55,548 bases of DNA from a virus: UHGV virus genome UHGV-0016284; one strand, given 5' to 3'. This document shows positions 6,340 through 55,548 of this stretch, in pieces; within the stretch, counting starts at the first letter, position 1; the number at the start of each line of letters is the position of its first letter. Under the pieces are notes generated by a model, which was given only the letters and a program-made list of their open reading frames with translations, ran no database searches and had not been told where the DNA came from. The translations under genes and the position numbers were made by a program.

Positions 6340-6373
6340 AGAAAATGCAACACAGATCACAAAATGGTAGAAT
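6340..6373 (+). promoter_or_regulatory. candidate extended -10 promoter for the side tail fibre gene
   Basis: TGgTAGAAT at 6365-6373 (TGn plus near-consensus -10); AT-rich upstream; GGAG ribosome-binding site before the ATG at 6407. Confidence 0.3.
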
Positions 6374-6406
6374 TATTCCGTTAATTAACAAAATGGAGTC
6401 ATCGAG

Positions 6407-9400
6407 ATGATTTACACAACTGGAACAATTGCCATCAATGGCAATACTGTTACAGGCACGGGCACAAACTTCTCCGCGCCGCTTTCTCTCATTCGTGTAG
6501 GCTGCACGCTCATTGCTGTTGGCAATCCGGTACAGATCTTTACCATCACAGAAATTAAAAGCGGCACTGAACTGTCAGTGACGCCAGCGGCTAACCCTGC
6601 AATCCCTGCCGGGACAAAATTCAGCATCCTGCTATCTGACTCGATCTCAGTTGATGGGCTTGCTCAGGACGTAGCTGAAACCCTGCGTTACTACCAGGGC
6701 AAGGAAACAGAGATCGCCGCCGCTGTCGAGTGGTGGGAAGATTTTGGCGGTGATGGTCAGGTGGATCAGCTTCTTGCCAACATTCGCGCAGAAACAGCGA
6801 AATCAACCGCTAACGCTCAAAAAACAGAATCTGACAAAAACGCAGCAGAAGCATCAAAAACAGCGGCTGCAAAATCTGCCACGGCAGCAAAAACATCAGA
6901 AACTAACGCAAAGAAAAGCGAGACAGCAGCAAAGACAAGCGAAACCAACGCCAAAACATCAGAGAACAGGGCGCAAGAATATCTGAATCAAATGGGAAGG
7001 CTTACCAGCCCAATGGTTCAATGCGATTGGCCCGTTACAACTGTTGCGACTGACGCTTACGTTAAGATAGCTAAAATTACCAACCCGGGTGGCACCCCCT
7101 GCCACATAACACTAATGATCACTAATGCCGGTAACTACGGGAAAAGTTACGGAAACATTGATTTTGTCGAGATCTCCGCTCGCAATTTTCCCAATGAACT
7201 GAACGCCGACAATGTATCTAGATACTTAAGTATCCGCCGCTTAGGTTCACCGAATCTGGCAACTGATAATCAGATGAGTTATGGGCTTGTTAAGGGCGAT
7301 AACTTTTTTGAGGTCTGGTGTTGTCAGCGAGCATTTACCACAAGCGCAAAGGTCGCTGTACTGGCACAGACTAATGAAAACGTGGAATTATACATTCCTG
7401 AAGGATTCGTTAGACAAGACAACGCACCATCAGGATTTATTGAAAGCCCAGCAGCAAGGATTTACGACCAGGTAAACAAGCCGACTAAAGCAGATTTAGG
7501 TCTTTCTAATGCTATGCTTACAGGCGCTTTCGGTCTTGGCGGTAGCGGTATACCATCAGACGGCAAGATGAGCGATGTAGAACTATTAAAAGCTCTTCGT
7601 GACAAAGGTGGTCATTTCTGGCGTGCTGATAAGCCAGCCGGAAGCACTGCGACCCATTATACCCACGGCGCTGGTATATTCTCTCGGTGTGGCGATACGT
7701 GGGCGGCGTTCAACGTCGAATACGGAACAGGTAGAGTCAAGGTTTACGCTGGTAACGATAATGGACTTAACCAGGGGAATTACTCCCTCAATGAACTATA
7801 CGGAACCCGAAATAAGCCGTCGAAATCGGATGTTGGACTCAGCAACGTAACTAACGATGCGCAGGTGAAAAAATCCGGCGATATTATGTTTGGCGACCTG
7901 GCGATCAAAAAAAGTATACCGTCAGTCTTTCTGCGGTCAGACGATGGAGCCGCCCATGTATGGTTCCAAAACGGGGATCAGTCCGAACGCGGCGTTATTT
8001 ATGCGCCTACAAATACTGATACGCTTGGCGAAGTTCACATCAGGGCTAAAACCGCAAAAGGTGAGACAAAAGGTGATTTTATTGTTCGCCACGACGGTAT
8101 GATTTCAGCCAAAGAGGCAAAAATAGCTTACAAAATCAGCGGAGCCACCGCAGAGCTTGCAAACGCATCAACTAACGTCGCTGATACTACGTTAAAAATC
8201 AGCGGCCCACAGCATACGCCTTTAGTTTTAACTCGCAGTGGAGCAATTAAAAACTTATCTATTGGGTTTAAGGTTGATGATGTTAACCAAAAATACTTGG
8301 GCGTAGCTGGTGACGGTGATTTGTATTTTGGTGATTCTTCTGACCACTCAAAAAACAGCAAAGTAATTACACAAGCAAAACTCGATAGCGGGGTAACGGT
8401 AGGCGGCAAAACAACCTTTTCCGACCTTGCCACATTTAACGCAGGTATGGCGGGATCTATCGAGCCGGAAGCCATTGACGGCCGGACTATTGATTTAAAC
8501 GACTTGATTATTGCTAATACAGAAGCTGGATCCGTTAAATACTATCAATGCAAAACTGTCGCAGGTGGTGCAAATATTACCAATAAGCCTGACGGCGTAA
8601 ACGGTAACTTTTTACTCCGTGTAGAGTCGACTCGTAAGACTACGGGTTCAGATTATGCAAACTTGCAAACGCTGATTGGCAGCGACACAAAACGCATATA
8701 CGTTCGCTTTGTTGTCAATGGAAGTTGGACAGTGTGGAGTCAGGTTGTTGTTTCAGGATGGAATCAGGATGTAACCGTCAGGTCGTTAGCCACACAAAAT
8801 GTTATTCTTGGTAATGTTACTCTTCGAGGGATAAACAAGGATGAAGGGGCGGGGATAGGTGTTGTTTTTGATGGTTCTAACTCTACCGAAAACACCTTCG
8901 GAATAGTTAATACTGGTGGTGGTTCGGCTGTTTTTCACAATTATGCTAAACCGGCTGATTCATCCGCTGTTAATACTGGCGTTCTGATAGGTGGTTATGG
9001 ATCAAGGCCGTGGACAGGCAGCACCTATACAGAGCACAGTAATGTATCTCAACACTTTCTCATGGATGGTGTAGCTTCTGCAACTAACCACGGTGGTTGG
9101 TTCCGTTTGTTAACCACACCATTAAATGCAACCATAGACAAACGTAGACAGACATTTGCTACGAGCAATAATGGCGACCTTTATATAGGTTACGATGTAC
9201 CTATGGGGCTGTACAAGCTAGATACTGCAAATTACAACGGTTTAGACATATTAAACGGTCGCGGCCTTAAGCAAGTAAATAACTCGGTTAATGAAATAGC
9301 CTTAATCACTCCACGAAATGGATCGGCAACCTCTTTAAATTTCAGAGGTGTTGCTTTTGATGGCACAATGACCGGGACTAAGGGTGCAACTCAGAAGGGC

Positions 9401-10066
9401 GATAACTTGTGGTTATCTTTTGCAGGCCACGATGGTGTAAAATTCACTGGGGCAGCAGCTGGTATCAGAATTCAGGCTTCAACTGGTTGGGGCACGACAT
9501 CAACTCAATGCGGGATAACATTTGCAACAACTGCTCAAGGGAGCACAACAAGAGTTGATAGATGGTCTATAACAAGTGATGGCACTCTATCACCTGCACA
9601 AGATAATACTTACGCAATTGGTAGCGCTGTTTCCCGTGCTACGTCAATCTTTGCTACTAATGGTGCAATACAGACGTCAGATGCAAGAATGAAAACAGAT
9701 GTCCGAAAAATGTCGGACGCGGAACTTTCAGCCGCTAAAGATATAGCCAGGGAGTTTGGCTTCTTCCAGTGGATTGAAAGAGTTAAAACGGAGGGTGAGT
9801 CAGCCAGGTGGCATACAGGTATAACGGCCCAGCGTGTTATTAGCATTATGGAATCACACGGATTAAACCCGATGGCGTATGGATTTGTTTGCTATGATTC
9901 CTGGGAAGAACAGGAGGTTGTATCTGTGGACCCAGATAATCAATCCAGGACTATCACAAAAATAGAAGCGGGGGATAGATATAGCTTAAGATATGAAGAA
10001 CTTAGCATTTTTATAGCCAGAGGGTTAGAACAGAGGATTTCGGAGCTGGAGGAAAAACTTTTGTAA
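6407..10066 (+). CDS. side tail fibre: Stf-like N-terminus, C-terminal S74-type intramolecular chaperone (autoproteolytic) domain
   Basis: N-terminal AAKTSETNAKKSETAAKTSETNAKTSE repeats as in lambda Stf-type fibres; Gly-rich beta region; C-terminus ...TSDARMKTDVRKMSDAELSAAKDIAREFGFFQW... resembles the Ser/Lys self-cleaving chaperone of endosialidase-type fibres. Confidence 0.8.
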   Translation: MIYTTGTIAINGNTVTGTGTNFSAPLSLIRVGCTLIAVGNPVQIFTITEIKSGTELSVTPAANPAIPAGTKFSILLSDSISVDGLAQDVAETLRYYQGKETEIAAAVEWWEDFGGDGQVDQLLANIRAETAKSTANAQKTESDKNAAEASKTAAAKSATAAKTSETNAKKSETAAKTSETNAKTSENRAQEYLNQMGRLTSPMVQCDWPVTTVATDAYVKIAKITNPGGTPCHITLMITNAGNYGKSYGNIDFVEISARNFPNELNADNVSRYLSIRRLGSPNLATDNQMSYGLVKGDNFFEVWCCQRAFTTSAKVAVLAQTNENVELYIPEGFVRQDNAPSGFIESPAARIYDQVNKPTKADLGLSNAMLTGAFGLGGSGIPSDGKMSDVELLKALRDKGGHFWRADKPAGSTATHYTHGAGIFSRCGDTWAAFNVEYGTGRVKVYAGNDNGLNQGNYSLNELYGTRNKPSKSDVGLSNVTNDAQVKKSGDIMFGDLAIKKSIPSVFLRSDDGAAHVWFQNGDQSERGVIYAPTNTDTLGEVHIRAKTAKGETKGDFIVRHDGMISAKEAKIAYKISGATAELANASTNVADTTLKISGPQHTPLVLTRSGAIKNLSIGFKVDDVNQKYLGVAGDGDLYFGDSSDHSKNSKVITQAKLDSGVTVGGKTTFSDLATFNAGMAGSIEPEAIDGRTIDLNDLIIANTEAGSVKYYQCKTVAGGANITNKPDGVNGNFLLRVESTRKTTGSDYANLQTLIGSDTKRIYVRFVVNGSWTVWSQVVVSGWNQDVTVRSLATQNVILGNVTLRGINKDEGAGIGVVFDGSNSTENTFGIVNTGGGSAVFHNYAKPADSSAVNTGVLIGGYGSRPWTGSTYTEHSNVSQHFLMDGVASATNHGGWFRLLTTPLNATIDKRRQTFATSNNGDLYIGYDVPMGLYKLDTANYNGLDILNGRGLKQVNNSVNEIALITPRNGSATSLNFRGVAFDGTMTGTKGATQKGDNLWLSFAGHDGVKFTGAAAGIRIQASTGWGTTSTQCGITFATTAQGSTTRVDRWSITSDGTLSPAQDNTYAIGSAVSRATSIFATNGAIQTSDARMKTDVRKMSDAELSAAKDIAREFGFFQWIERVKTEGESARWHTGITAQRVISIMESHGLNPMAYGFVCYDSWEEQEVVSVDPDNQSRTITKIEAGDRYSLRYEELSIFIARGLEQRISELEEKLL

Positions 10067-10169
10067 TATTGCCGCAATGGATGAGCGGATAGCAAAACTT
10101 GAAGCGCTTATCAGTCAGTTGACCGGAAGCGAAGAATAAGAGGTGATGTACGAAGAACATCGCCGCGCG

Positions 10170-10197
10170 AAACGAGGCTTACGCCTCGTTTCTTTTT
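10170..10197 (+). terminator. rho-independent terminator after the tail fibre gene
   Basis: Hairpin aacgaggc-ttac-gcctcgtt followed by tcttttt. Confidence 0.7.
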
Positions 10198-10451
10198 GTG
10201 TACCAAATCGTGACCAAATTGATAAATCAAAAACAAAAACAAATCATAAGATATTGAATGCAAACAGGTTTTTCGCTGAACTACCCATTCAAAAGATAAA
10301 CGGATAGTGCCATTTCTATAATTTCATATCGTGTCGCATCGTCACCGTTTCGCGTTGATTTAAAAAGAAATATTTATTCTATCGTGTCATATCGTTCCCT
10401 ATCGTGGTACTATCCATGCGTAAAATGTGTGTACCAAATAGTGACCAAATT
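10197..10451 (+). promoter_or_regulatory. putative attP / integrase regulatory region with 24-bp direct repeats and ATCGTG-type short repeats
   Basis: tgtgtaccaaatcgtgaccaaatt at 10197-10220 recurs (1 mismatch) at 10428-10451, directly abutting the int ATG; several tatcgtg/catcgtc repeats lie between; no tRNA-like sequence seen. Confidence 0.35.
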
Positions 10452-11651
10452 ATGCTTACAGATACCAAACTAAGAAACATCCACGGCAAGCCATACGACG
10501 GCCCGGAAGAAGTACCGGATGCGGGCGGATTGTCTGCCAGGATAAGCCCGCGCGGAGTTATATCTTTCCAGTATCGCTACCGATTCAACGGCAAGCCTCG
10601 ACGGATGAAGATCGGCACATACGGAGAAATAACACTTAAAGAAGCCCGCGCGGCGGTGGCTGAACATAAGGAAGTGTTAAACTCAGGACGAGATCCATCA
10701 ATCGTAAAAAGAATGCACTTTTCCCGCGTTACGACACGGGCAACGGTTGAGGATATTGTCAGGGAGTACATGGAATCACCACAGGCAAGAAACATGGTTA
10801 ACTATAAGCAGGTTGAAGCGATGTTGAATAAGCACGTCATCAGGCCATACGGTAGCTATATAGTCGATGATATGGACGCTATGATGTGGGAGGGTGTTTT
10901 TAGAAAGGTGGCTAATGGTGGTGCACCAGTTCAGGCGGGCATAGTTCTCAATAGAATGAAAGCGGTAATAAAATACGCCATGCGTCGCCGCCGCGTGGAT
11001 CGTGACGACATATCTTTACTACGCGTGAAAGACGTTGGTAAAAACCCGGCGCAAGGGAAGCGGGTTTTGTCAATACAGGAGATTCGCCATCTAATCAGCC
11101 TTATAGACAGTTCAAAAATGGCGCGTCTAAATCAGATATTGATGAAACTGATTATATTCACCGGATGCAGGACAAGCGAGCTAACAAACGCAAGGCGAGA
11201 ACATTTCGATCTTGATAACTGCGTGTGGACTGTGCCGGGTGCATTGAGTAAGAACAGAAACGAGTTTAAACGCGGTTTATCCGACGTTAGCGTCGATTTA
11301 TTGCGTGAGGCTATGGATCTGCATAGCTTTAATTTTGTCTTCGTTCCTGTGCTTTCTGGAAGGGATGAGGCGGTGGACAGAAGTGTACCGAAAACAGCGG
11401 CAAGGGATTTGATGTTAAGGATGGGCGGCGAGCCGTGGTCGTGTCACGATCTACGCCGCACTGTGAGAACGAACCTCTCTGCCATTGGCATTGCGCCTCA
11501 CGTTGCAGAAAAGGTTTTAGGTCATAAGCTGGCGGGGATGTTGGCTATATATGATCAGTATGACTACGTGAGGGAACAGACAGAGGCGATGAACATGCTT
11601 GCTGATTATTACATGAAGCCCATTGATTTACAAAATGAAATAACGTCCTGA
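10452..11651 (+). CDS. int: tyrosine integrase, P4-type
   Basis: N-terminus MLTDTKLRN...GLSARISPRGVISFQYRYRFNGKPRRMKIGTYGEITLKEARA is the characteristic P4-family start; C-terminal catalytic region with HDLRRT and LGH...Y-containing tail. The track start at 10404 is probably an upstream extension. Confidence 0.9.
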   Translation: MLTDTKLRNIHGKPYDGPEEVPDAGGLSARISPRGVISFQYRYRFNGKPRRMKIGTYGEITLKEARAAVAEHKEVLNSGRDPSIVKRMHFSRVTTRATVEDIVREYMESPQARNMVNYKQVEAMLNKHVIRPYGSYIVDDMDAMMWEGVFRKVANGGAPVQAGIVLNRMKAVIKYAMRRRRVDRDDISLLRVKDVGKNPAQGKRVLSIQEIRHLISLIDSSKMARLNQILMKLIIFTGCRTSELTNARREHFDLDNCVWTVPGALSKNRNEFKRGLSDVSVDLLREAMDLHSFNFVFVPVLSGRDEAVDRSVPKTAARDLMLRMGGEPWSCHDLRRTVRTNLSAIGIAPHVAEKVLGHKLAGMLAIYDQYDYVREQTEAMNMLADYYMKPIDLQNEITS

Positions 11652-12474: not shown

Positions 12475-12475
12475 A

Positions 12476-12637
12476 TTACGCCACCGTTACATTGTCAATT
12501 TTGATAAAATATTCAGGGTGATTTTCTATTTCGTGCTTAAAGTGCGCGTGACACAATCGCCAATCACGCGCCTGGTTGTGAAAGTAATAAACGTATTCGC
12601 CATCAATCTTATACAAAATGCCTGTAGGTTTAGCCAT
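12476..12637 (-). CDS. small hypothetical protein (53 aa, Cys/His-containing)
   Basis: ATG at 12637; MAKPTGILYKIDGEYVYYFHNQARDWRLCHAHFKHEIENHPEYFIKIDNVTVA; tightly packed between neighbours; below the ORF-track size cut-off. Confidence 0.3.
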   Translation of the reverse strand: MAKPTGILYKIDGEYVYYFHNQARDWRLCHAHFKHEIENHPEYFIKIDNVTVA

Positions 12638-13296: not shown

Positions 13297-13305
13297 GGTT
13301 GCCCC

Positions 13306-15558: not shown

Positions 15559-15576
15559 TATGTTATTGCCTCCGGT

Positions 15577-16695
15577 TTACAAAATGGAATATTCAGGGTA
15601 ATAAACAAAGCGCCCTATCTCACCATGATCCGGGCTGTAAATAATCACCGCTGCCAGCCGACGCGACCGCCAGCCGCCATTAGTTGAATATGCGTCTTTG
15701 CCCGCTAACGTTCCGTGGTGTTCGACGATCCCCAATGATGTTTCAACGACAGATTGGTGGTGTAGGTGTCCAGTGTGAGCGTAAACAGCAACCGACTTGC
15801 CGAAATCCTCCCGCCAGTCAGATACGCAAGCCGACAATAAATTTTCTGGCTTTTTGATAGTGTGCCCGTGGTGGTAAGCAAGGAATGTTTTACCGTACTG
15901 CGTGTGGTGGACGATAGCAGGGGACACATCAACAGTTACGCGCGGTTCGTCTTCGTAAAAAGCTGCCAGCGCCGCACGTAGCCAAATCATGCCTGACTGA
16001 TCGTGATTGCCTGATAACACCTGGATTTCAACATCCTTATGATTTAACAACATTTTACCTACCGCCCGCCGGACCGACCGGATCGCCACATAAACAAGTT
16101 TTGCGTAGCGCGAATCACAATCTAGGACGTGATTGCTTGATGGTGTGACTGGTAATAGCCCGTCAGTGTGAAGTAGATCGCCACCGAGAAGCAATACAGC
16201 TTTTTCAGACATCGGCGCAGCGCCTACAGCGTAGTCGAAGAAGTCATTCAACACGCGCTCAGCGATCCCGGTGTCGTAGCTCTCTCCACATTCTGCTCTG
16301 TGAGCAAGCGCCCCGATATGCAGATCAAATACCGGATAAAGGGCCAGGCTTTTTTGGAAATCAATTTCAGGCACTGGCACAGCCTCCGCGCGTGGTATCT
16401 CATCCGTGAAAGCGTCGCGGGCCGCTTCCATTAGCTGTTCCATTTCGTCGCGGTCACGGGCTGTTTTAATCCAGCGCATGATCACATTGCCGTTCTTATC
16501 GACCAGTAACGACTCGCCATTGACGCCAAAACCAGGGGCGCGGCGCGTTGATAATAAACCGCGTTTCGCCAGCTTTGCGCCCAGCCGCTCGACGTTGCGT
16601 TTTGACATACCATATTTTTCAGCGATCTGCTTGTACGTTAAACCGTTGTTATATTCAGCGATCAATTGCTCATCGCTTATCTTTCTTTGTGACAT
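15577..16695 (-). CDS. fusion protein: N-terminal helix-turn-helix plus C-terminal calcineurin-like metallophosphoesterase
   Basis: N-terminus LTYKQIAEKYGMSKRNVERL (HTH). C-terminal half carries the ordered metallophosphoesterase motifs DLHIG, GGDLLHTDG, GNHD, HHGH, GHLHH. Confidence 0.6.
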   Translation of the reverse strand: MSQRKISDEQLIAEYNNGLTYKQIAEKYGMSKRNVERLGAKLAKRGLLSTRRAPGFGVNGESLLVDKNGNVIMRWIKTARDRDEMEQLMEAARDAFTDEIPRAEAVPVPEIDFQKSLALYPVFDLHIGALAHRAECGESYDTGIAERVLNDFFDYAVGAAPMSEKAVLLLGGDLLHTDGLLPVTPSSNHVLDCDSRYAKLVYVAIRSVRRAVGKMLLNHKDVEIQVLSGNHDQSGMIWLRAALAAFYEDEPRVTVDVSPAIVHHTQYGKTFLAYHHGHTIKKPENLLSACVSDWREDFGKSVAVYAHTGHLHHQSVVETSLGIVEHHGTLAGKDAYSTNGGWRSRRLAAVIIYSPDHGEIGRFVYYPEYSIL

Positions 16696-16729
16696 AGTGT
16701 CATTTCCTCACGAATAACAAATTGTATAC

Positions 16730-19297: not shown

Positions 19298-19464
19298 TAT
19301 TAATACCTCGCATTTAGTAATTTGCTTTTGCATGGATACAATCAATAAAACGCGCTACAACGCAAAAATCCCACCGCGTAACCCATTTGCACAGGTTGCA
19401 GTGTCTTATTGCGTCAGAGGCGCTTTCAGGTGGCTAATTTTTGATTTACAGACTGGTATGAAGG

Positions 19465-19566
19465 TTATGGATTGACCAGAAGGAACAAACCGCCGAACAA
19501 AGCGACGTTAACAGCGATTGCCGCAGCGATGGCAAAAGCCAGGGCGAAAACGTGTTTACCGTCCAT
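19465..19566 (-). CDS. hydrophobic minipeptide (33 aa, one predicted TM helix)
   Basis: MDGKHVFALAFAIAAAIAVNVALFGGLFLLVNP; GAGAGG ribosome-binding site upstream; intergenic location between the HNH and initiator genes. Confidence 0.3.
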   Translation of the reverse strand: MDGKHVFALAFAIAAAIAVNVALFGGLFLLVNP

Positions 19567-19703
19567 TTTAAAATCCTCTCTGTAACGCTCTATAACGAGC
19601 TAATCGCAAAAAGGTAAGCAAGTGTAGCACCATATGCGATTTAGCTCGCTGGTGAGCTTGTTTTGTGGGTGATTTTGGATTTTTGGTAATGCCGAATGGT
19701 TGT

Positions 19704-20758: not shown

Positions 20759-21163
20759 TCAAAACGGCGCTGTTCTCTGTTGGAATTTATCCAGAAAATC
20801 ATCGCTACCATCAAGTTCTAATGCGTAAAACATATCGCAATCACCCTTGCCTGGCTTATCATGCTTGATGGCTATGATGTCCTTAATTTCTTTGTCTTTT
20901 ATGTCCTTATATGGCCCGCAAAATACAGGGTGATACGGGAAAACACCTTCGCGTAGTTTTTGGTATAAGTCAGATCTCGTTATTCCGGCCCACCAGGCTA
21001 ATCTAAACAGATTGTCTTCGCGGAACACCACATAGTAAGTGTTGTGGTATTGGCAATCGGCAAGATACATGGCGATCAGCCTGTCTTCCGCTTTCCAGTA
21101 ATAAGTCTTATCGATGATATCCCTTGCTGTAGCAGCAAGATTGATTGAGTCATCGTTAATCAT
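20759..21163 (-). CDS. hypothetical protein (134 aa), first gene of the leftward operon
   Basis: ATG at 21163 preceded by AGGAGA; track version starts at TTG 21241. Not Cro-like in size or sequence. Confidence 0.5.
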   Translation of the reverse strand: MINDDSINLAATARDIIDKTYYWKAEDRLIAMYLADCQYHNTYYVVFREDNLFRLAWWAGITRSDLYQKLREGVFPYHPVFCGPYKDIKDKEIKDIIAIKHDKPGKGDCDMFYALELDGSDDFLDKFQQRTAPF

Positions 21164-21380
21164 TCTTGTGTCTCCTATGGTTAGAGTGAACGCGCGGGCG
21201 GGCATCCCATTAGCATTAGATAGCAGTGACTGACCGCTCAACAGATCCCGCCGTTGCGTGATATTTGTTTTTCGCTTCGCAGCGACACCGGATTTTTAAA
21301 GAGCTTAAGTGGTTGGCCTTTTGTGCTTTCCGTTATCTTTTTTCTTGCATCATTGCAACTATGGCCTTACCTTGTTTGCA

Positions 21381-21425
21381 AGTTTACAGAATGGCGTTGA
21401 CAGGTCAAGGCTTTAAAAATACGTT
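21381..21425. promoter_or_regulatory. divergent overlapping promoters with palindromic -35 region (immunity-region control)
   Basis: Plus strand: TTGACA (21397-21402), 17-bp spacer, TACGTT. Minus strand: TTGACC (complement of 21403-21408), 16-bp spacer, TAAACT (complement of 21381-21386). The two -35 elements form the palindrome TTGACAGGTCAA. Confidence 0.4.
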
Positions 21426-21467
21426 TTGTGACTTGTATCAAACTTTTTTAGGTTATAGGGTAGCGAC

Positions 21468-22115
21468 ATGAAAACAAAATGGTATGACTTAGCAAAACAA
21501 CTCATGCGGGCGCAGGGCATGAGCCAGGATTCATTGGCTGATCTCATGGGGATAACCAAAGGTGGCCTTTCGCACTGGCTGAACGGTCGCCGTGAGCCAA
21601 ATCTTGAAGATATTGCGCGGATTATGCGGGCGCTTGGGCGTCGGCAGTTTACTGTCACACATGACGGGATGGTTATCGATGATTCTGTTTCTAACACTTT
21701 ACCGGGAGCGCCACCGCGTGATTTAGGCAGTTACCCGGTTGTTGACTGGAAGGATGTAGCAAACAATATGGAAGGCATACGCCGATCAACATTGCCACAT
21801 GTTACTACTAACGTTATTTGTTCGGATGATAGTTATTGGCTGGTAGCTAAAGGTGAATCAATGAACGCACCGCAGGGGTTAAGCATCCCTGCCGGTACTA
21901 TGATACTTATTGACCCGCACGCGCCAGCTATTGATGGTAAACTGGTTATAGCTCAACTCGAAGAAGGGCAAATACCGACGTTTAAACAATTGATTATTGA
22001 TGGAGGCCGAAAACTTTTGCGTTCACTGAATCCGTTGTATCCGCCGATCCCTATGAATCCAGAATCAAAAATCATTGGCGTGGTTGTTGATGCGAAGATC
22101 GTAAACCTGCCATAA
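21468..22115 (+). CDS. cI-like repressor (HTH_XRE N-terminus, LexA/S24 autopeptidase C-terminus)
   Basis: N-terminal HTH (MSQDSLADLMGITKGGLSHWLNGRREP); C-terminal S24 fold with GESM (Ser nucleophile) and downstream Lys (TFKQL). Confidence 0.8.
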   Translation: MKTKWYDLAKQLMRAQGMSQDSLADLMGITKGGLSHWLNGRREPNLEDIARIMRALGRRQFTVTHDGMVIDDSVSNTLPGAPPRDLGSYPVVDWKDVANNMEGIRRSTLPHVTTNVICSDDSYWLVAKGESMNAPQGLSIPAGTMILIDPHAPAIDGKLVIAQLEEGQIPTFKQLIIDGGRKLLRSLNPLYPPIPMNPESKIIGVVVDAKIVNLP

Positions 22116-22148: not shown

Positions 22149-22239
22149 CGAAAAAACACCAAAACGTAAACAGAAAACGCTATTTATTGTTTAAATATCA
22201 ATAGTATATAAAATATTTTAAAAAAGTATACAAAATGGA

Positions 22240-22268
22240 TTGACTCGGTGTTTTACGGGGCGTATATT
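22240..22268 (+). promoter_or_regulatory. strong sigma70-type promoter for the rightward operon
   Basis: TTGACT (22240-22245), 17-bp spacer, TATATT (22263-22268). Confidence 0.55.
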
Positions 22269-22312: not shown

Positions 22313-22349
22313 GCTCTTTAACAATCTGGTCAGCCGCTGGAAGTGCGGC
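22313..22349 (+). promoter_or_regulatory. nut-like site: boxA-like sequence plus boxB-like hairpin
   Basis: GCTCTTTAA (22313-22321) resembles boxA (CGCTCTTA); hairpin GCCGC-tggaagt-GCGGC at 22333-22349 resembles boxB. Confidence 0.35.
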
Positions 22350-22406: not shown

Positions 22407-22697
22407 ATGAGCGTTACAATCATGTATGGCAAATGTGACAGTAAACTGAATGCCAGGGAACGCAGAAAAATAAAAAGAGAAAACGAAAGAAAATCATCAC
22501 CTGCAATTAATAAAACAGACAATGTGGATAAAGCTATTCGATTTGCAAACGAGGAAAGGTGCAAACCAAATAGCATTAAAGAACGTCGCAAAGGATCAGT
22601 AAAATGGTATATGGAAAATGAAAGCGGCAGCTACTACCACGCAACGCAACCACGCCATTTAGGGGAAAAACCCCTGGATAAAGTCCGCTATCATTAA
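22407..22697 (+). CDS. basic protein with arginine-rich motif, candidate N-like antiterminator
   Basis: First gene after the promoter and nut-like site; KLNARERRKIKRENERK near the N-terminus resembles an arginine-rich RNA-binding motif. Weak assignment. Confidence 0.35.
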   Translation: MSVTIMYGKCDSKLNARERRKIKRENERKSSPAINKTDNVDKAIRFANEERCKPNSIKERRKGSVKWYMENESGSYYHATQPRHLGEKPLDKVRYH

Positions 22698-22727
22698 TAC
22701 AAAATGTAAACATTCGGAGGTGACATT

Positions 22728-26101: not shown

Positions 26102-26104
26102 CAT

Positions 26105-26120
26105 TGTGATTGCGATCACA
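26105..26120. promoter_or_regulatory. perfect CRP-consensus-type palindrome TGTGA-N6-TCACA
   Basis: tgtgattgcgatcaca at 26105-26120 in a 100-bp intergenic gap; further TGTGA half-sites just downstream (tgtgatcgca, ttttgtgaact). Confidence 0.4.
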
Positions 26121-26200
26121 TAAATATACATTTTGTTTTGTGATCGCATGTCCGTTTTGTGAACTGAAATCAAAAGGTTTACGGCGCGGAGGAAAACAAG

Positions 26201-29185: not shown

Positions 29186-29286
29186 AACAAGCCACCGCCG
29201 CGCGGCTTCGCCCGTGCTGTATTCCTGGCTAACGACCGGGCCATCACGCGGACTACGCTTAACCGCGTTTTACCGGACTAAAGTTT

Positions 29287-29359
29287 ACAAAATGGCGTCA
29301 TTGCGTGATATGGATCACATAATGGCGCTTTTCGCCTTGTTCTGGTGTATCCATTTTGT
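29287..29359. promoter_or_regulatory. nested inverted repeats (TTTACAAAATGG ... GTGATatggATCAC ... CCATTTTGTA)
   Basis: ACAAAATGG at 29287-29295 and its reverse complement at 29351-29359 flank the palindrome gtgatatggatcac; intergenic between the HNH gene and the next ORFs. Confidence 0.3.
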
Positions 29360-29440
29360 ATACTTCAAGCAAACAAAATGCTCTTTAAAAATCCGGCAGC
29401 GCTGAAATGCGTAGAAATCACCTGAAAATGAGAGGGCATT

Positions 29441-46176: not shown

Positions 46177-46193
46177 TATGTGGAGCAAACAAA

Positions 46194-46580
46194 ATGGTCA
46201 CTACAGAACAGGCGCGGGAATATCTTGAAAGCCAGGGTATTGACCTGCCAGACATTATCTTATCCTTGCTGGTGGAGCAGGCAAACAGCGTTAATGAATG
46301 CCTTGATGCCAACTATCCGGCCTCCACTGCAACATTGATTCAACTTTATCTGATTGGCCTGTTAGGACTCACTCAGGCCAACAAGTACGTTTCCTCGCAA
46401 ACTGGTCCGAACGGTGCAAGCCAGTCATACCGCTATGTCGATTTTAATAAAAAATGGAAGGCGGCCTATTCGTTGCTTTATTCCCTGGACAAACATAACT
46501 GTACAGCAGAACTAATTCCACCAGATCCAGAAAACACAGCACACGCCGGGCTGTGGATAGGTAAAAGCGGGAGGATGTGA
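46194..46580 (+). CDS. putative head-tail connector / head completion protein
   Basis: Position between capsid and tail genes; start set to ATG 46194. Confidence 0.4.
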   Translation: MVTTEQAREYLESQGIDLPDIILSLLVEQANSVNECLDANYPASTATLIQLYLIGLLGLTQANKYVSSQTGPNGASQSYRYVDFNKKWKAAYSLLYSLDKHNCTAELIPPDPENTAHAGLWIGKSGRM

Positions 46581-47129: not shown

Positions 47130-47131
47130 TC

Positions 47132-48445: not shown

Positions 48446-48452
48446 ACAATAA

Positions 48453-48476: not shown

Positions 48477-48489
48477 TAGGGTGAATACT

Positions 48490-49170: not shown

Positions 49171-49191
49171 CCGGGCCTCTAAAATTCTGTG

Positions 49192-49551
49192 TTAGTTGAA
49201 ATACGCATCAACTCTGTGGGCCACGTTTACACCATAAGACTCGCCATCATTAAACGCATTTAGTGACGCTTTATTGTTTTTTGCCGCCTCTTTTAATCCA
49301 TTGTACTTGCTATTAAGATCTTTCCATTCAGCGGTTTTTTCTAATACTGGCTTCATTGCGTAATGAATACAGCCAACGTTAAATGGCATTTCCAGATCAC
49401 CATTACCGTCACCATGCTTTATATCGTACAACTGAGCATTATGCGCACATTCACGAAGTATGTATTTTGCGGACGGAGAGTGCTCAGCATTAGCATTAAG
49501 CGCAACTCCTGCAAGTACCGCCACGATTAAGATTTTTGCCAGACTTTTCAT
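49192..49551 (-). CDS. secreted/periplasmic protein (Sec signal peptide), antisense moron
   Basis: MKSLAKILIVAVLAGVALNANA then EHSP...: classic signal peptide with AxA cleavage site; mature ~97 aa with 2 Cys; GGGGTGA ribosome-binding site. Confidence 0.6.
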   Translation of the reverse strand: MKSLAKILIVAVLAGVALNANAEHSPSAKYILRECAHNAQLYDIKHGDGNGDLEMPFNVGCIHYAMKPVLEKTAEWKDLNSKYNGLKEAAKNNKASLNAFNDGESYGVNVAHRVDAYFN

Positions 49552-49563
49552 ATTTCACCCCGC

Positions 49564-49653: not shown

Positions 49654-49729
49654 TTTCTTATCCTCTTTTGCTTCCTCCGGTCAATCCGGCCTTTTAAGTC
49701 CCTTCGCTCTATCCCTTTCCTTTGGCTTC

Positions 49730-49800
49730 TTTATACAAAATGTGTTCACTGAAGTAAATCCATTTTGTATAAAATAGAGGCATAGATCACATTTTGTATG
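49730..49800. promoter_or_regulatory. inverted/direct repeat cluster and candidate minus-strand promoter upstream of the moron (and of the tape measure gene)
   Basis: ATACAAAATGT (49733-49743), CCATTTTGTAT (49760-49770), ACATTTTGTAT (49788-49798). Minus-strand TTTACT-17-TATAAA promoter (complement of 49753-49758 and 49730-49735). Confidence 0.4.
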
Positions 49801-49810
49801 AGGTTAAATC

Positions 49811-52800: not shown

Positions 52801-52966
52801 TGGTGGTAACGTTAGTATAAACGCACCGATTAGCGTTTACCCACAAAATGGATGGAGTGATGAGGACGCCAAAAAACTACAGCAGGATATGGAAAAGATC
52901 TGCATGGGCCTGATACACCGCGAATCATCCAGACCGGGCGGAATGCTGCAACCGCGCCGCAAATAA
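49811..52966 (+). CDS. tail tape measure protein
   Basis: 1051 aa, long Ala/Gln/Glu-rich coiled coil, Gly-rich C-terminal region; canonical position. Confidence 0.85.
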   Translation: MSTNLGTIYYEVDAKTGQLLTVQREVDRATGKMEKDLERVDSAATQASKSLSKLSSIASALGAAMAAKKIIEYANAWQEVNNRLINSVRAGESLADVNQRVFQIAQNSRSDLDATADLYGKLERSTRDAGLSTKALGDMVETINKTFRISGASAAEAEGGIRQLGQSLAKGVLNGDEFNSVTENATRLSEGLAKSLGVSSAEMRKMAAEGKITREAIIKALKEMKAEVDAEFSKLTPTMQEAFTVAGNNAAKFFGSNSSIMGGIGAFNSAVVTLSENLNEIATAFIGIATVMGGRVVNKFVAATAEVLTNAQATRAQTAAARQAAQSELALANAQVVSARQSVAAAAARLREAQAYAAANAGTKFEVQTLKELAVAKAQNTAASNALTAAEQRLAAAHTAAAANAGLLKTAFSATLGAIGGIPGALMLAVYGLTAYVDHVDQTAEANRNLADSVDVSTESLERMSKAAKLAGADKLQISMGQLEEDVASLNKQIDQDTQALELNKQALEKAEEGSRAYANLSKANQEITARLTREEAQREDILDRLNQMQRKYILLMQDTDPLMKTVATSLGLVADAYGRITTEAERAAAATQHASAALNADQQELMNLANRRLELAKLDSKTASREKAIDGFKREAEKANLTGEAYEKYMATMTKAYDTEQKRAEAERKASHGKKTGESEEKKHLKEAERLRKELEKRGQNVADKYNVEAAAQRKLKEDQDALNAALKSGKISAEQYNKAWKELIGTEEQRKRQASWDNLVNKELQLRGQLDPIQQAMNEWAVRKQMLTDLGATEQYMREQEKAHEREMLSLQWERYKAQSLTNQLLGDAVDAMSGSATNALVGLINGTQNWQQAIANIGNTILSSVIGTIVQMGTEWVKQQLIGDTARTMATAKAMGEAVALSSAWSTPAYLASVATMGGAATAGSAAIATGLAGAKALGLAGARYNGGAVNGGSLYRVGEHGKPEIFQSRNGEQYMIPGDNGRVIPNRDIGGAGGGNVSINAPISVYPQNGWSDEDAKKLQQDMEKICMGLIHRESSRPGGMLQPRRK

Positions 52967-52972
52967 TCAAAA

Positions 52973-53000
52973 CCCCGGCGCAATGCCGGGGTTATTTTTA
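52973..53000. terminator. rho-independent terminator after tape measure (probably bidirectional)
   Basis: Hairpin ccccggc-gcaat-gccgggg followed by ttattttta; same stem as the terminator at 46148. Confidence 0.7.
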
Positions 53001-53177
53001 TTCAATTTCATCATTTTTAAATTCGCCGTTTGCATAAAGCTGTAATGCGCTTATCAGTTCGTCAGCTTGCTTTTTGTCTATTACAATCATCTCGCAGTCG
53101 CTAACGATCCATAATCTTCCATCATCTTCAACACTAAGATCAATCCTTCTACATTCTTCAGTCTCGTGAATAATCAT
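52998..53177 (-). CDS. small protein (59 aa), antisense cassette gene 4
   Basis: MIIHETEECRRIDLSVEDDGRLWIVSDCEMIVIDKKQADELISALQLYANGEFKNDEIE; GAAGG ribosome-binding site. Confidence 0.4.
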   Translation of the reverse strand: MIIHETEECRRIDLSVEDDGRLWIVSDCEMIVIDKKQADELISALQLYANGEFKNDEIE

Positions 53178-53215
53178 TATAAACCTTCATCATGTTATTG
53201 ATTTCGTGAATAAAT

Positions 53216-53386
53216 TTACTCAAATCTTGTATATCCTCTTTCAATTTTCCCTCCGTGTACACTTCTGGCAAATACCGCGTCAGTATACCTGAAAAATGGG
53301 CATGTATATGTATCCCCTTTGCTATCCATATATTTTAGCACCCACGCTATGCGTTTTACGTTGCTTTTATTTGCCGGGTTTTTCAT
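53216..53386 (-). CDS. small protein (56 aa), antisense cassette gene 3
   Basis: MKNPANKSNVKRIAWVLKYMDSKGDTYTCPFFRYTDAVFARSVHGGKIERGYTRFE; GGAGGA ribosome-binding site before ATG 53386. Confidence 0.4.
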   Translation of the reverse strand: MKNPANKSNVKRIAWVLKYMDSKGDTYTCPFFRYTDAVFARSVHGGKIERGYTRFE

Positions 53387-53417
53387 TTTGTTTTCCTCCG
53401 CAACATTCAAATCCGTG

Positions 53418-53672
53418 TCACTTGTGAGCGCCTTTCACCCCACAGTGCCTGTTATATTCCAGGTGGTCAATAATTAACCACATCTTTAAATCTTCGCTGA
53501 ATAACCGCCAATCGGGGTTAATATCAAATTTATAACCGTAGCCATCGCGTAATTTTTTGGGGGTGGCCTCTTTTCTCAGGAAAGCATTTAATAAAGCCTT
53601 GCCCTTTTTGATGATCCGGTCCTGTGCGTTTTTCTGTGCTTTCAGATTTTTACCAATCGCTACCAATTTCAT
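53418..53672 (-). CDS. small protein (84 aa) with weak RelE/YafQ-like toxin resemblance, antisense cassette gene 2
   Basis: ...KKLRDGYGYKFDINPDWRLFSEDLKMWLIIDHLEYNRH: PDW-containing segment resembles YafQ (KGYRDAHVEPDWILIYKL). Unverified. Confidence 0.4.
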   Translation of the reverse strand: MKLVAIGKNLKAQKNAQDRIIKKGKALLNAFLRKEATPKKLRDGYGYKFDINPDWRLFSEDLKMWLIIDHLEYNRHCGVKGAHK

Positions 53673-53690
53673 AACACACCCCACAATCCA

Positions 53691-53846
53691 TTAGTTGACC
53701 ACTTTCAGGAAGAAATCACGGTATTCATCTTCTTTTGCATTCATCATGAATTGACCGTATTTGAATGCGTCATCAAAGCCTTTAACTATCGCCACTTCCA
53801 CCTGTTCGAATGCGTTGTTCAGCATCACAACCACATAGCGTTCCAT
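53691..53846 (-). CDS. small protein (51 aa), antisense cassette gene 1
   Basis: MERYVVVMLNNAFEQVEVAIVKGFDDAFKYGQFMMNAKEDEYRDFFLKVVN; GGGGGGAGGGG ribosome-binding site before ATG 53846. Confidence 0.4.
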   Translation of the reverse strand: MERYVVVMLNNAFEQVEVAIVKGFDDAFKYGQFMMNAKEDEYRDFFLKVVN

Positions 53847-54019
53847 ATTGCCCCTCCCCCCTTGTCGGTACTGCTTTTTCTTCTTGCTTACTATATACAT
53901 CTTGTCACGCCTTATGTGAAGCCATTTTGTAAACTGGTTATAATTCTTGTGATGAATTTCTCATTTTTCGCGTAGAAGCGCGTAAAGATGTATGCAATAT
54001 GTAACTTATAGGGGGAATC

Positions 54020-54373
54020 ATGCCAGAAGTTTTCAGATGGACGCCGCAAAGAAGCTACAGCGTGACCAGGGAACCAAATGTGTCTGTCGTTAAACTTGGT
54101 GATGGTTATGAACAGCGCCAGGCGAAAGGGATTAACACGTTGCTTGATAGTTATACCCTGGTTTTCAAAGGCAGTAGCGCGGGATGTGGTGATGGTGGAA
54201 ACGTGGCGATCCAGGCTGAAGCATTTTTGAGGGCGCGCGGCGCTGTCGATGCTTTCTACTGGACGCCTTCGATGGATGGGGTGCAAAGGCTTTTCGTTTG
54301 CCGTAGCTGGAGCATGACCAAAGACGGGCCTGTGTACACGCTAAACGCAACGTTTGAACAAGTTGTTGGCTAA
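54020..54373 (+). CDS. M: minor tail protein M (lambda M-like)
   Basis: Aligns by eye with lambda M along its length (FRWTPQ.....V.....V.KL.GDGYEQRQAKGIN..L.SYTLVF........EAFL...G....FYWTP.......F.C..WS.........ATFEQVV). Confidence 0.8.
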   Translation: MPEVFRWTPQRSYSVTREPNVSVVKLGDGYEQRQAKGINTLLDSYTLVFKGSSAGCGDGGNVAIQAEAFLRARGAVDAFYWTPSMDGVQRLFVCRSWSMTKDGPVYTLNATFEQVVG

Positions 54374-54570
54374 TGGGGGTTGTTATGTACGGGACTTGTG
54401 TAGTTGACAAAACTTACGCTTTTACATTGTTTGACGACTATGAGATCAACGACCTTACTGTAAAAGCTGACAACGGCGATATATGGTATCTTCACGACGT
54501 TGGTGATGGGTACGTGGGGTGTAGATCCCGGGAAGGGAAGGAGGTTTTATTTTTGGTTGATGGCGTATAA
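54373..54570 (+). CDS. small hypothetical protein (61-65 aa) after M
   Basis: ORF overlapping the M stop; likelier start is ATG 54385 (GGGGG ribosome-binding site). Not L-like. Confidence 0.4.
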   Translation: MGVVMYGTCVVDKTYAFTLFDDYEINDLTVKADNGDIWYLHDVGDGYVGCRSREGKEVLFLVDGV

Positions 54571-54575
54571 ACACG

Positions 54576-54604
54576 ACCCCGCGCGAAGCGGGGTTATTAT
54601 TATT
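54576..54604. terminator. bidirectional hairpin terminator
   Basis: ccccgc-gcgaa-gcgggg followed by ttattattatt; the stem is the reverse complement of the one at 5958. Confidence 0.6.
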
Positions 54605-54716
54605 CCATTTCCATTAATGCTATATTTTCTGCTATCGTTTTCCAGTCCAGATCTACAGCATGAACGCCAAATACTATCAATCCCATTATTATTAGCGCCA
54701 AAACTTCTATTTTCAT
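54600..54716 (-). CDS. hydrophobic minipeptide (38 aa)
   Basis: MKIEVLALIIMGLIVFGVHAVDLDWKTIAENIALMEME; GGTGA ribosome-binding site. Confidence 0.35.
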   Translation of the reverse strand: MKIEVLALIIMGLIVFGVHAVDLDWKTIAENIALMEME

Positions 54717-54726
54717 AATCTGTCAC

Positions 54727-54975
54727 CTATAAGTTATCACGCAGATAATTAACGCCCTTATCAGTGACGAATGAATGGTTAACCTGGTTTTCATCCGTCA
54801 TGATGATGAATAACTTTTCCTGTAGGTATTTCGCTTTCGGGTACAGCGTTAAACAGACCTGGTACAGTATCCCGCGCTCAATCAGCAAATCAATAAATTC
54901 GTGCTCATGATAACCGACGAGGCGGGCGGCCTGTTTCAACGTGTACACATAGTCACCGTGATTGCTCCGCCCCAT
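54727..54975 (-). CDS. hypothetical protein (82 aa), possible DNA-binding
   Basis: YTLKQAARLVGYHEHEFIDLLIERGIL looks HTH-like. Tentative. Confidence 0.4.
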   Translation of the reverse strand: MGRSNHGDYVYTLKQAARLVGYHEHEFIDLLIERGILYQVCLTLYPKAKYLQEKLFIIMTDENQVNHSFVTDKGVNYLRDNL

Positions 54976-54984
54976 ATTACCGCC

Positions 54985-55335
54985 TTATTTATCGAAGGCT
55001 GAAAGATTATCAATACAGAAGTCTTTAGCCGCTTTTTCGTATTCGCGTTTTGCTTCTGGATCGTCAGCCGGGAAACCTTTTGCGTGTATTTCACCAGGGC
55101 AAGACTGATCCATAGAGTCTGCAAATTCAACATTGACGTTAAAGTTAATATCTTTCGGGTTCATCTCTTCCACCTTATCCGGTACTTGGACCGGAGTAAT
55201 GTCAAATTCACGAGCGCTAGACCAACAGCGCAGTAATTCACGACCTTCATCACGCGCGGCGTTGTATGTATCGAATAACCCCATGCGCTCCCATTCGCAT
55301 TTATCAGTGAACACTTCTAAGCTGTATTTTTGCAT
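54985..55335 (-). CDS. hypothetical protein (116 aa)
   Basis: Antisense ORF overlapping the upstream gene end. Confidence 0.45.
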   Translation of the reverse strand: MQKYSLEVFTDKCEWERMGLFDTYNAARDEGRELLRCWSSAREFDITPVQVPDKVEEMNPKDINFNVNVEFADSMDQSCPGEIHAKGFPADDPEAKREYEKAAKDFCIDNLSAFDK

Positions 55336-55507
55336 TTTTTGTTATAACCTCCCATTTGGCAGGTTCGATCCTGTATCCCAAAACGCGGTCATCTTCAGCA
55401 AGTAAAAGCGCGTCAGTTAGTGCCTCGCCTTCGTCTTTATACAGAGCTACAGTCATTTCCCTGCCGCCTGACAGGAATACCGTCAACCTCCACACCTTAT
55501 CAGCCAT
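55304..55507 (-). CDS. hypothetical protein (67 aa)
   Basis: GGAGGTG ribosome-binding site before ATG 55507 (track start 55525); the cassette may continue beyond the window end. Confidence 0.4.
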   Translation of the reverse strand: MADKVWRLTVFLSGGREMTVALYKDEGEALTDALLLAEDDRVLGYRIEPAKWEVITKNAKIQLRSVH

Positions 55508-55548
55508 CTCACACCTCCGCGCCATTTTGTTAACCCTGCTTCCTTTTG

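Follow-up and report, generated by a model that had tools for sequence, protein, structure and literature searches.

The operators of phage lambda (OR1-3 and OL1-3) are 17 bp long, combine a consensus and a non-consensus half with the recognition sequence TATCACCGC, and lie 24-25 bp from their neighbours. The mEp021 group ('mEpimmI') consists of Nus-dependent non-lambdoid temperate coliphages, reportedly as common as lambdoid phages in human gut E. coli (PMC11893012). A plasmid-borne copy of its cI-like repressor, Rep021, gives immunity to all group members; three nut sites were described, a virion protein with a predicted DNA-binding motif was noted, and the Rep021 operators, which may differ from those of lambda, were left unidentified in that study (PMC11893012). 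Here we analysed the UHGV virus genome UHGV-0016284 (55,548 nucleotides, hereafter the window), a nearly complete, circularly permuted genome of this group showing 86-91% identity to seven deposited phages and 87-94% identity to prophages in 35 complete E. coli genomes. The initial annotation of the window had reported an over-represented 9-mer, ACAAAATGG. The data presented below indicate that this 9-mer is probably the conserved half and the centre of a ~17-bp operator of Rep, the lambda-cI-like repressor of the phage, found in ~20-25 places and not just in the two control regions that are usual.

Counting on both strands showed that ACAAAATGG is present in 13 copies, as compared to 1.13 +/- 1.06 (maximum 5) in 100 dinucleotide-preserving shuffles, in agreement with the over-representation first reported. 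All ten copies listed by the initial annotation were exact matches (6359, 6388, 15579, 22230, 29287 and 46189 on the plus strand; 29351, 49760, 53922 and 55522 on the minus strand). Three further copies were found at 21474, 42259 and 52843, and the two near-copies it had mentioned correspond to ACAAAATGT, at 49735 (+) and 49790 (-). The shorter word ACAAAATG was the top-ranking 8-mer of the window, with 24 copies. The 12-mer TATACAAAATGG occurred 3, 9 and 23 times with 0, 1 and 2 mismatches (0.03, 0.49 and 8.1 in shuffles), and 13 motif copies carried a WTAC prefix, for which the expectation is well below one. The proposed concentration between genes was also borne out. Using a crude map of open reading frames (ORFs), 10 of the 24 copies of ACAAAATG were non-coding in a window that is 10.3% non-coding (P = 7e-5); in the annotated relative mEp021, 16/17 copies were non-coding, for a non-coding fraction of 12.4% (P = 4e-14).

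Comparison of motif positions in relatives, a check suggested by the initial annotation, revealed that the core is fixed at orthologous positions. The genome of mEp021 has the identical top 8-mer in orthologous places, and clustering of the motif copies of 76 related loci gave 27 orthologous site groups (a group being present in at least 6 loci) in which the core is fixed and the flanks drift. Motif density was 0.35-0.74 copies/kb in 44/44 IMG/VR loci encoding a Rep at least 90% identical. The sequence AAAAAGTATACAAAATG was invariant across 36 distinct versions of the rightward early promoter PR, while the promoter spacer just downstream was variable. At PL, the leftward early promoter, 27 sequence variants all kept the motif and the promoter hexamers; the TTGACA found beside the motif in the window was not kept. 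In the tail region around gene M, mEp-type loci contained 0.448 copies/kb versus 0.021/kb in 49 lambdoid loci encoding an M protein ~70% identical (820 kb in total), and TACAAAATG did not occur once in these 820 kb. This excludes a general property of E. coli or of the tail module as the source of the motif. A host factor is unlikely, since TACAAAATG is absent from lambdoid coliphages with homologous tail modules.

A logo built over the 27 site groups read a-G-T-W-T-ACAAAATG-K-A-W. Its core is symmetric around the fifth base of ACAAAATG (C1 A2 ... T6 G7, or CA-NNN-TG), and the extended dyad GTATACAA-A-TTGTATAC is as long as a lambda operator (17 bp). The full site would be a pseudo-palindrome of this length, (G)T(A/T)TAC - 5 A/T-rich bp - GTA(W)(A)(C), with unequal halves, one close to the consensus (GTATAC or GTTTAC) and the other weaker (GGA, GGC or GTA). 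At least one complete TAC half was found in 19/27 site groups and a complete right half GTA in 8/27 (6.3% in the background, P = 2e-4); both halves were complete in only 5/27. The consensus T[T/A]TACAAAATGG proposed by the initial annotation was therefore correct but incomplete: the functional unit appears to be the dyad TAC-N5-GTA, and sites with other centres were missed by looking at the 9-mer.

Scanning both strands for T[AT]TAC-N5-G[GT] returned 40 matches, with 24.3 +/- 5.1 expected, and revealed sites with variant centres over the -10 of PR, over a -10 near 53.9 kb, and at 16717, 19445, 6294 and 22159. Orthologues of the site at 16717 keep the TTTAC...GTATA halves while the centre varies among AGAAT, GTTTT, ATTTT and AAATT, indicating that the halves, and not the 9-mer as such, are the conserved unit. 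The distance between site centres is exactly 25 bp at PR (22234/22259), near 53.9 kb (53901/53926) and near 49.7 kb (49739/49764), and 29-34 bp in a cluster near 6.3 kb. Orientations are mixed within clusters (+,-,-; -,-,+,+; +,-,+).

The gene encoding the proposed binding protein, rep (21468-22115, plus strand), specifies a cI-like repressor with matches to Pfam HTH_3 (4.6e-13) and Peptidase_S24 (4e-18). Its best PDB match is the lambda repressor 3bdn (E = 1.6e-18), and the protein is at least 90% identical across all mEp-type loci. A promoter scan identified PL (TTGACC-16-TAAACT, 21408-21381, minus strand) and PR (TTGACT-17-TATATT, 22240-22268, plus strand, 10/12) as the only sigma-70 consensus matches around rep. 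The gene is co-oriented with PR, from which it is separated by a terminator, and a boxA/boxB nut site lies downstream of each of the two promoters. A Cro common to the group seems to be lacking, as the first gene of the leftward operon is not homologous between group members: it is a 133-aa ORF without family match in the window (20759-21241, minus strand), the 81-aa winged-helix-like gp14 in mEp021 (L001:10615-10860) and a 75-aa HTH_3 cro-like protein in a distant branch (L252:9649-9876). Rep is the sole regulator adjoining PL and PR that stays constant across the group.

Operator-like sites were found at both early promoters. At PL, GTTTAC-AGAAT-GGCGT (21382-21398, +) covers the -10 and the spacer, and many relatives have the exact TTTACAAAATGG there. 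Between PL and rep lies GTCAC-AAAAC-GTATT (21417-21433, -), a conserved block that reads GTCACAAAATGTATT in relatives, forms a 13-locus cluster with the exact 8-mer and belongs to the type represented by the middle operator in the Tatumella and Serratia prophages described below. At PR, the last 3 nt of GTATAC-AAAAT-GGATT (22226-22242, +), the site with the invariant sequence, are the TTG of the -35; the distant branch L252 retains this site next to PR. The scan for TAC-N5-G on both strands added a second PR site, TTTAC-GGGGC-GTATA (22251-22267), which lies over the -10 and is conserved, with a left half TTTAC, TATAC or ATCAC among relatives. The same two-site geometry is seen in the homologue loci of Serratia, Citrobacter and Rouxiella. 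A variant, GTTTAC-GTTTT-GGTGT (22155-22171, -), is located 71 bp upstream of the PR site, and CCAAAACGTAAAC is kept in relatives. An ambiguous copy without a TAC half (21470-21486, +) overlaps rep codons 2-5 (M-K-T-K-W). It shares a 16-nt match with the PR copy and may be a mere coding consequence of K-T-K-W, the MKxKW N-terminus being conserved in the protein family.

Searches with full-length Rep recovered homologues with 39-56% identity; the N-terminal domain alone retrieved only near-identical fragments. Alignment of the homologues showed a conserved recognition helix (T-K/Q-G-G/A-x-x-H-W-L-N-x-R-R-E-P) and a conserved N-terminal arm, which in Rep read MKTKW...GITKGGLSHWLNGRREP. The homologue P0013 comes from the distant branch of the same phage type (L252-L255), whose alignable genes are 65-70% identical to the window at the nucleotide level. 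It is 56% identical to Rep overall, with an identical recognition helix and N-terminal arm. L252 has TATACAAAATGG beside the -35 of PR, GTCACAAAATGG in the cro-rep spacer and 12 copies of the 8-mer in 20.6 kb, 3 of which (5259, 6687 and 16090) are of the start-codon type.

Homologues with the same helix were also found in otherwise unrelated prophages of Citrobacter, Rouxiella, Tatumella, Serratia and Shewanella. In all of them, the repressor gene is paired with a divergent cro-like gene of the HTH_3 family, and each of the five cro-cI spacers, 90-107 bp long, contains three WTAC-N5-GTAW sites ~30 bp apart: AGTATACATATCGTATTCA, AGTATACATATTGTGTCTC and GCTATACAAAACGTATAAT in Serratia, and TGTACATTATGTATA, TGTACATTATGTTTA and TGTACATATCGTACA in Shewanella. 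The middle site in Citrobacter, ATAATACAAAATGGAAC, includes the exact 11-mer of the window motif, ATACAAAATGG. A good promoter downstream of the homologous repressor genes (TTGAAA-17-TATACT in Serratia) has a pair of sites on its -35 edge and its -10, separated by 25 bp, a spacing found in the Serratia, Tatumella and Shewanella loci. When the five loci were pooled, TAC-N5-GTA occurred at 8.6/kb in the regulatory flanks versus 0.22/kb elsewhere (P = 3e-19), several of the matches elsewhere being themselves 25-bp pairs. One repressor, P0043, has the same C-terminal domain as Rep and an unrelated N-terminal domain. TAC-N5-GTA was not found at its locus, which has TTTAGC...GCTAAA palindromes instead, indicating that the type of site follows the DNA-binding domain. 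L049-051, three IMG/VR loci in which the repressor is 36% identical, were considered as an immunity-swap control; they turned out to be unrelated phages and were uninformative. Collectively, the same site type accompanies the same recognition helix in six lineages, and the predicted site co-varies with the repressor DNA-binding domain across unrelated prophages. The initial annotation had left the choice between a phage and a host regulator; the phage's own cI-like repressor, with the motif as the consensus half and centre of its operator, is the candidate retained here, the host alternative being the unlikely part of that proposal.

Several observations weigh against the assignment of these sites to Rep. 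A TAC half is missing from 8/27 site groups (start-codon and coding copies, a copy at the boxA of nutR2 and two GATCAC copies). Compared with the operators of the homologues, the sites of the mEp group have a much more uniform centre (AAAAT) and a much weaker second half, which a plain symmetric-dimer model does not explain; readout through the short MKTKW arm or through DNA shape might account for both. Outside PL and PR, the promoters recognised by eye have a base other than T at the end of the -10 and were not called by the promoter scan, and several sites lie inside operons, without any promoter. A literature search by sequence string returned primers only and no binding data for this repressor family. 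Finally, a search of IMG/VR for convergent motif pairs yielded, beyond mEp-type contigs, mostly chance inverted repeats in AT-rich viruses and one contig of a different kind, L248. This unrelated IMGVR_UViG contig (9999 bp) contains five copies of tACAAAATGt (2367-2410, 3987-4063 and 4899), including two in the spacer between its own cI and cro genes, although its S24 repressor is not similar to Rep. Either different proteins can use this core, or the signal is partly promoter sequence (CATTTTG before a TAnAnT -10). Two L248 copies sit in back-to-back promoters (TTGACC-17-TATATT and TCAACA-17-TACAAT) with CATTTTG directly 5' of the -10, and part of the motif may therefore also suit promoter function. 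The perfect palindromes GATACAAAATGTATC and ATACAAAATGTAT were seen in other viruses (L173 and L160, respectively); together with L248, they may represent convergent use of the same core.

Another protein of the immunity region, either Cro-like or the small HTH-like virion protein of mEp021, might bind the sites while Rep uses other operators. Cro and cI share operators in lambda-type switches, so that sequence analysis cannot separate them, and a divergent HTH_3 cro-like gene accompanies the repressor in all the homologous prophages; the mEp021 virion protein has, as noted above, a predicted DNA-binding motif (PMC11893012). We consider this explanation unlikely. The motif is invariant in the mEp group although the Cro-like gene is not conserved, the type of site tracks the repressor N-terminal domain across five genera and changes when only that domain is replaced, and PL and PR have no other repeated element in common. 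Improbable too is a role as a promoter element for the host RNA polymerase, be it the proximal subsite of an UP element or a spacer/-10 module made of CATTTTG and TAWACT. The proximal UP consensus is AAAAAARNR, which ACAAAATGG matches at 7/9 positions, and the 9-mer ends 1 nt before a -35-like hexamer at PR, 49761 (-), 49735 (+) and 53923 (-). Its reverse strand supplies the -10 at PL and near 49.7 kb, and the two L248 promoters have the same arrangement. Neither orientation is consistently tied to a promoter, however, as each geometry fits only 3-4 of ~20 site groups; the UP-element position (-38 to -59) accounts for only 3-4 sites, and elsewhere the motif lies over a -10, in 5' untranslated regions or between genes. 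A fixed promoter module in either orientation was rejected for the same reason, the promoter scan calling only PR and PL. Moreover, the motif outlives the adjacent TTGACA at PL, an element read by the host would be expected in the lambdoid coliphages that lack TACAAAATG, and the sites of the homologues are clear palindromes with variable centres. None of the known sites of the host factors considered (IHF, OmpR, CpxR, PhoP, TyrR, MarA, GadE, EvgA, LexA and DnaA) fits, and a 21-bp dyad seen around PR (AGTATA-N9-TTGACT) was not reproduced at other sites.

An excess caused mostly by translational start context (Shine-Dalgarno (SD) sequence, A-rich spacer, ATG and G) and coding coincidence, without function at the DNA level, is very improbable. 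As the initial annotation had cautioned, some copies do coincide with start codons: the motif ATG is a start codon, with an SD 5-9 nt upstream, at 46189, 53384 and 55523, and otherwise only in a few copies in relatives. The copy at 46189-46197 (+), which has no TAC half, starts a head-tail gene (SD GGAG, 9 nt upstream), and mEp021 gp57 begins at the orthologous ATG; the 8-mer at 53384-53391 (-) follows the SD GGAGG. Both represent translational context. The copy at 55518-55534 (-; 26 loci), also without a TAC half, provides the ATG of ORF 55304-55525 (SD AGGAAG) and is a doubtful operator. These three copies, perhaps with 6388, are only ordinary SD-spacer-ATG contexts. A quarter of the L252 copies are of this type, the rep copy encodes T-K-W, and the five copies within coding sequence (21474, 42259, 52843, 34559 and 8794) may be there by chance. 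In most copies, by contrast, the frame opened by the motif ATG closes within 1-7 codons or lacks an SD. Other copies precede a -35 or run antisense to local transcription (12613, 15579 and PL), and coding context accounts neither for the 13 WTAC-prefixed copies nor for the variant sites without ATG (TAC-GGGGC-GTA and TAC-ATCTT-GT) at equivalent positions. A function at the RNA level was rejected because copies are antisense to the transcript of the leftward operon and upstream of PR; no Rfam match was found. We also give little credit to the suggestion that the motif is a boundary sequence for module exchange or the target of a phage DNA methyltransferase. The copy at 15579 lies exactly at a junction of differing genes, its core being invariant while the far flank is non-homologous among relatives, copies flank variable antisense cassettes, and the phage encodes several methyltransferases. 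The boundary idea thus held for 15579; elsewhere it describes at most a side effect, as most copies are in stretches collinear among relatives, and the use of repeated operators as microhomology for exchange is a possible by-product. Neither recombination nor methylation needs a motif placed over promoter hexamers at a fixed 25-bp spacing. The conserved unit of 13-17 bp, almost exclusively intergenic and over promoter elements, also argues against methylation, and a 13-17-bp asymmetric word is unlike known methyltransferase targets.

Operators of Rep therefore remain our preferred explanation. A Rep dimer would place one helix-turn-helix on each half-site, and its lambda-like C-terminal domain would probably promote cooperative binding of dimers to sites ~25-30 bp apart. 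Since one site covers the -10 of PL, and the two PR sites overlap the upstream -35 edge and, for the one whose centre is GC-rich, the -10, RNA polymerase would have no access to either promoter once Rep is bound. This proposed block is based on position, conservation and homology of architecture. Through the remaining sites, Rep might silence or tune secondary promoters in the prophage, and some sites, for example those next to a lipoprotein-like ORF, could even be activating. What we infer is that Rep binds the candidate sites, that it does so cooperatively, and whether it represses or activates at the cassette promoters. More tentatively, Rep might act as a genome-wide organiser whose ~20-25 operators gate every autonomous prophage promoter (those of the antisense accessory cassettes, of the lipoprotein/tail-fibre junction and the one feeding nutR2), with mixed sign, bridging of distant clusters by lambda-like oligomerisation and exchange through microhomology. 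If true, this would amount to a P1- or L5-style network of dispersed operators built on a lambda-cI-type protein, in a coliphage group without a conserved Cro.

Single sites occupy gaps of the leftward operon and of the rightward operon. In the former, TATAC-AAAAT-GCCTG (12609-12625, +; 15 loci) lies between a NinB-like gene and the next gene and is intergenic in mEp021, and GTTTAC-AAAAT-GGAAT (15575-15591, +; 41 loci) is 17 nt upstream of the helicase start, at a mosaic junction. Across this junction (15559-15600), mEp021 has the HNH endonuclease gene gp10 beyond the motif, the window continues directly with a gp11-like ORF, and other relatives have unrelated sequence. Two variants came from the TAC-N5 scan and the comparison of relatives: TATAC-AATTT-GTTAT (16713-16729, -), in a 34-bp intergenic gap, where relatives have TTTAC-AGAAT-GTATA, TTTAC-GTTTT-GTATA or TTTAC-ATTTT-GTATA, and TTTAC-AGACT-GGTAT (19444-19460, +), in the non-coding stretch 19346-19703, where GATTTACAGACTGGTA is kept in most relatives. 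In the rightward operon, the near-palindrome AATAC-AAAAT-GTAAA (22695-22711, +; 44 loci) separates an N-like gene from the next gene, and (A/T)AC-AAAAT-GTATA (26124-26140, -; 32 loci, AATACAAAATGTATA in relatives) lies in the intergenic region 26102-26200. Next to the latter we noticed a palindrome matching the CRP consensus, TGTGATCGCAATCACA (26105-26120, minus strand), with a perfect TGTGA-N6-TCACA core; a second one, cGTGATATGGATCACA, is present at 29304-29319. Both are kept in relatives and adjoin operator-like sites in early-region gaps, which suggests possible catabolite control of early or delayed-early transcription.

The three nut sites, nutL (21283-21305, minus strand), nutR1 (22313-22345) and nutR2 (29380-29412), each consist of a boxA (GCTCTTTAA...) and a boxB hairpin, and each is downstream of a promoter region containing the motif. 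The cluster upstream of nutR2 (29283-29363) comprises GTTTAC-AAAAT-GGCGT (29283-29299, +; 42 loci, intergenic in mEp021) and GTATAC-AAAAT-GGATA (29347-29363, -; 36 loci), the latter 20 nt upstream of the nutR2 boxA. Read on the plus strand, the sequence at this site (29352) looks by eye like a promoter (TTGTTC-16-TATACT), for which the promoter scan made no call. An 8-mer copy without a TAC half (29369-29385, +; ACAAAATGCTCTTTAAAAA) overlaps the nutR2 boxA and is probably not an operator. As this 8-mer, at 29373, is fused to boxA, and a copy in L252 is likewise fused to the boxA of nutR1 (GCTCTTTAACAAAATGG), some motif copies arise from boxA itself.

Clusters of three or four sites fill every junction between a leftward antisense cassette and the rightward late operon, at 6290-6400, 49731-49801 and 53893-54006, preceding the tail-fibre gene, the tape-measure gene and M, respectively. 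The first lies in the gap that separates the tail-fibre gene (6407) from the leftward lipoprotein-like ORF (5982-6230). It contains the variant TATAC-GAAAT-GTGCT (6290-6306, -), followed by TACAC-AAAAT-GTATT (6321-6337, -; 15 loci). Next comes GATCAC-AAAAT-GGTAG (6355-6371, +; 25 loci), which has no TAC half, is probably a site with a non-consensus half, and whose TGG is also the TGn of the extended -10-like TGGTAGAAT. In the last copy, TTAAC-AAAAT-GGAGT (6384-6400, +), GGAG is the ribosome-binding site of the tail-fibre gene; most relatives have ACATAATGG, and its status as an operator is uncertain. Between the antisense ORF 49192-49551 and the tape-measure gene, TATAC-AAAAT-GTGTT (49731-49747, +; 28 loci) and TATAC-AAAAT-GGATT (49756-49772, -; 31 loci) form a 25-bp pair, and CATAC-AAAAT-GTGAT (49785-49801, -) is 10 nt upstream of the tape-measure start. 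Back-to-back promoter-like hexamers seen there by eye, TTTACT-17-TATAAA (-) and TTCACT-17-TATAAA (+), were not called by the promoter scan because the last -10 base is not T. The third cluster begins with the variant TATAC-ATCTT-GTCAC (53893-53909, +), over the -10-like TATATA of a leftward cassette promoter, with TATATACATCTTGT kept in relatives. Its 25-bp partner GTTTAC-AAAAT-GGCTT (53918-53934, -; 22 loci) adjoins the -35-like TTCACA; these hexamers (TTCACA-17-TATATA) were again identified by eye and not called by the scan. A diverged copy, TATGCAATATGTAAC (53990-54006, -; TATACAAAATGTAAC in relatives, 23-locus cluster), is 14-30 nt upstream of the M start.

The cassette governed by this leftward promoter (53418-53900, minus strand) is antisense within the tail operon and comprises a small upstream ORF and a gene for a protein with a ParE-like toxin domain (PF24732, 3e-11); the two operator-like sites 25 bp apart lie in the promoter region of the cassette. 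In L252, two perfect copies of GTATACAAAATGG, 39 bp apart (L252:8540-8620), are directly upstream of a Rha/ANT antirepressor-like gene of the leftward operon, a gene well placed to be controlled directly by the immunity repressor. These arrangements suggest that accessory cassettes of the tail operon (ParE-like toxin here, antirepressor-like ones in relatives) are wired directly to the immunity repressor, with consequences for prophage gene expression in lysogens and for the spread of induction. In mEp021 and MagusPhagus, the tail genes L, K and I are located between the last antisense cassette and J; they are missing across the window ends (1-205 and 55526-55548). As L is missing, the additional motif pair seen upstream of L in relatives falls outside the window. 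Other repeated words were CGCCGCCGC (13 copies), the 12-mers GCCAGCGTTAAA and AGCGATTGCCTG (3 copies each) and the 11-mer ATTGCCTGATC (4 copies), presumably repeats internal to the large tail-fibre and J genes.

The analysis supplies a candidate operator for a prevalent group of gut coliphages, TAC-N5-GTA, mostly GT(A/T)TACAAAATGG, together with a map of ~25 candidate sites and a two-site architecture for PR. The same code would apply to a wider repressor family, in prophages of Citrobacter, Serratia, Tatumella, Rouxiella and Shewanella. The literature searched by sequence string contained no description of the TAC-N5-GTA recognition sequence.

The closest comparison is with lambda cI. Like Rep, cI has an HTH N-terminal domain and an S24 LexA-like C-terminal domain, and its system likewise has paired sites over the -35 and -10 of the early promoters, with several sites beside the repressor gene. 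Unlike in lambda, the mEp site is TAC-N5-GTA with an A-tract centre, unrelated to the lambda recognition sequence, ~20-25 sites are distributed genome-wide including the tail region, rep is co-oriented with PR with a terminator between them, and no cro is conserved. The C1 repressor of P1 binds, as a monomer, many dispersed operators with the asymmetric 17-mer ATTGCTCTAATAAATTT. The two systems share a single immunity repressor and asymmetric-looking operators scattered over separate operons, whereas C1 is unrelated in sequence, the protein proposed here is lambda-cI-like and its homologues show a true dyad. The stoperators of L5, bound by gp71, are ~13 bp long, have one orientation relative to transcription and block elongation. 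They resemble the mEp motif as a short, apparently asymmetric site that recurs in short intergenic gaps and at an early promoter; here, in contrast, both orientations occur within as well as between operons, and Rep is unrelated to gp71. In the operators of 434 and of P22 c2, the central bases are read indirectly. As in these systems, the outer bases would be contacted and are conserved, and the A/T-rich centre may matter through DNA shape; half-sites and spacing differ, and the nearly invariant AAAAT centre of the mEp group is atypical of 434 or P22. Taken together, these comparisons point to a new recognition sequence within the lambda-type operator system, apparently common to a repressor family across Enterobacterales and Shewanella. 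The unusual feature is the number and spread of the sites, ~20-25 of them, the tail-gene region included.

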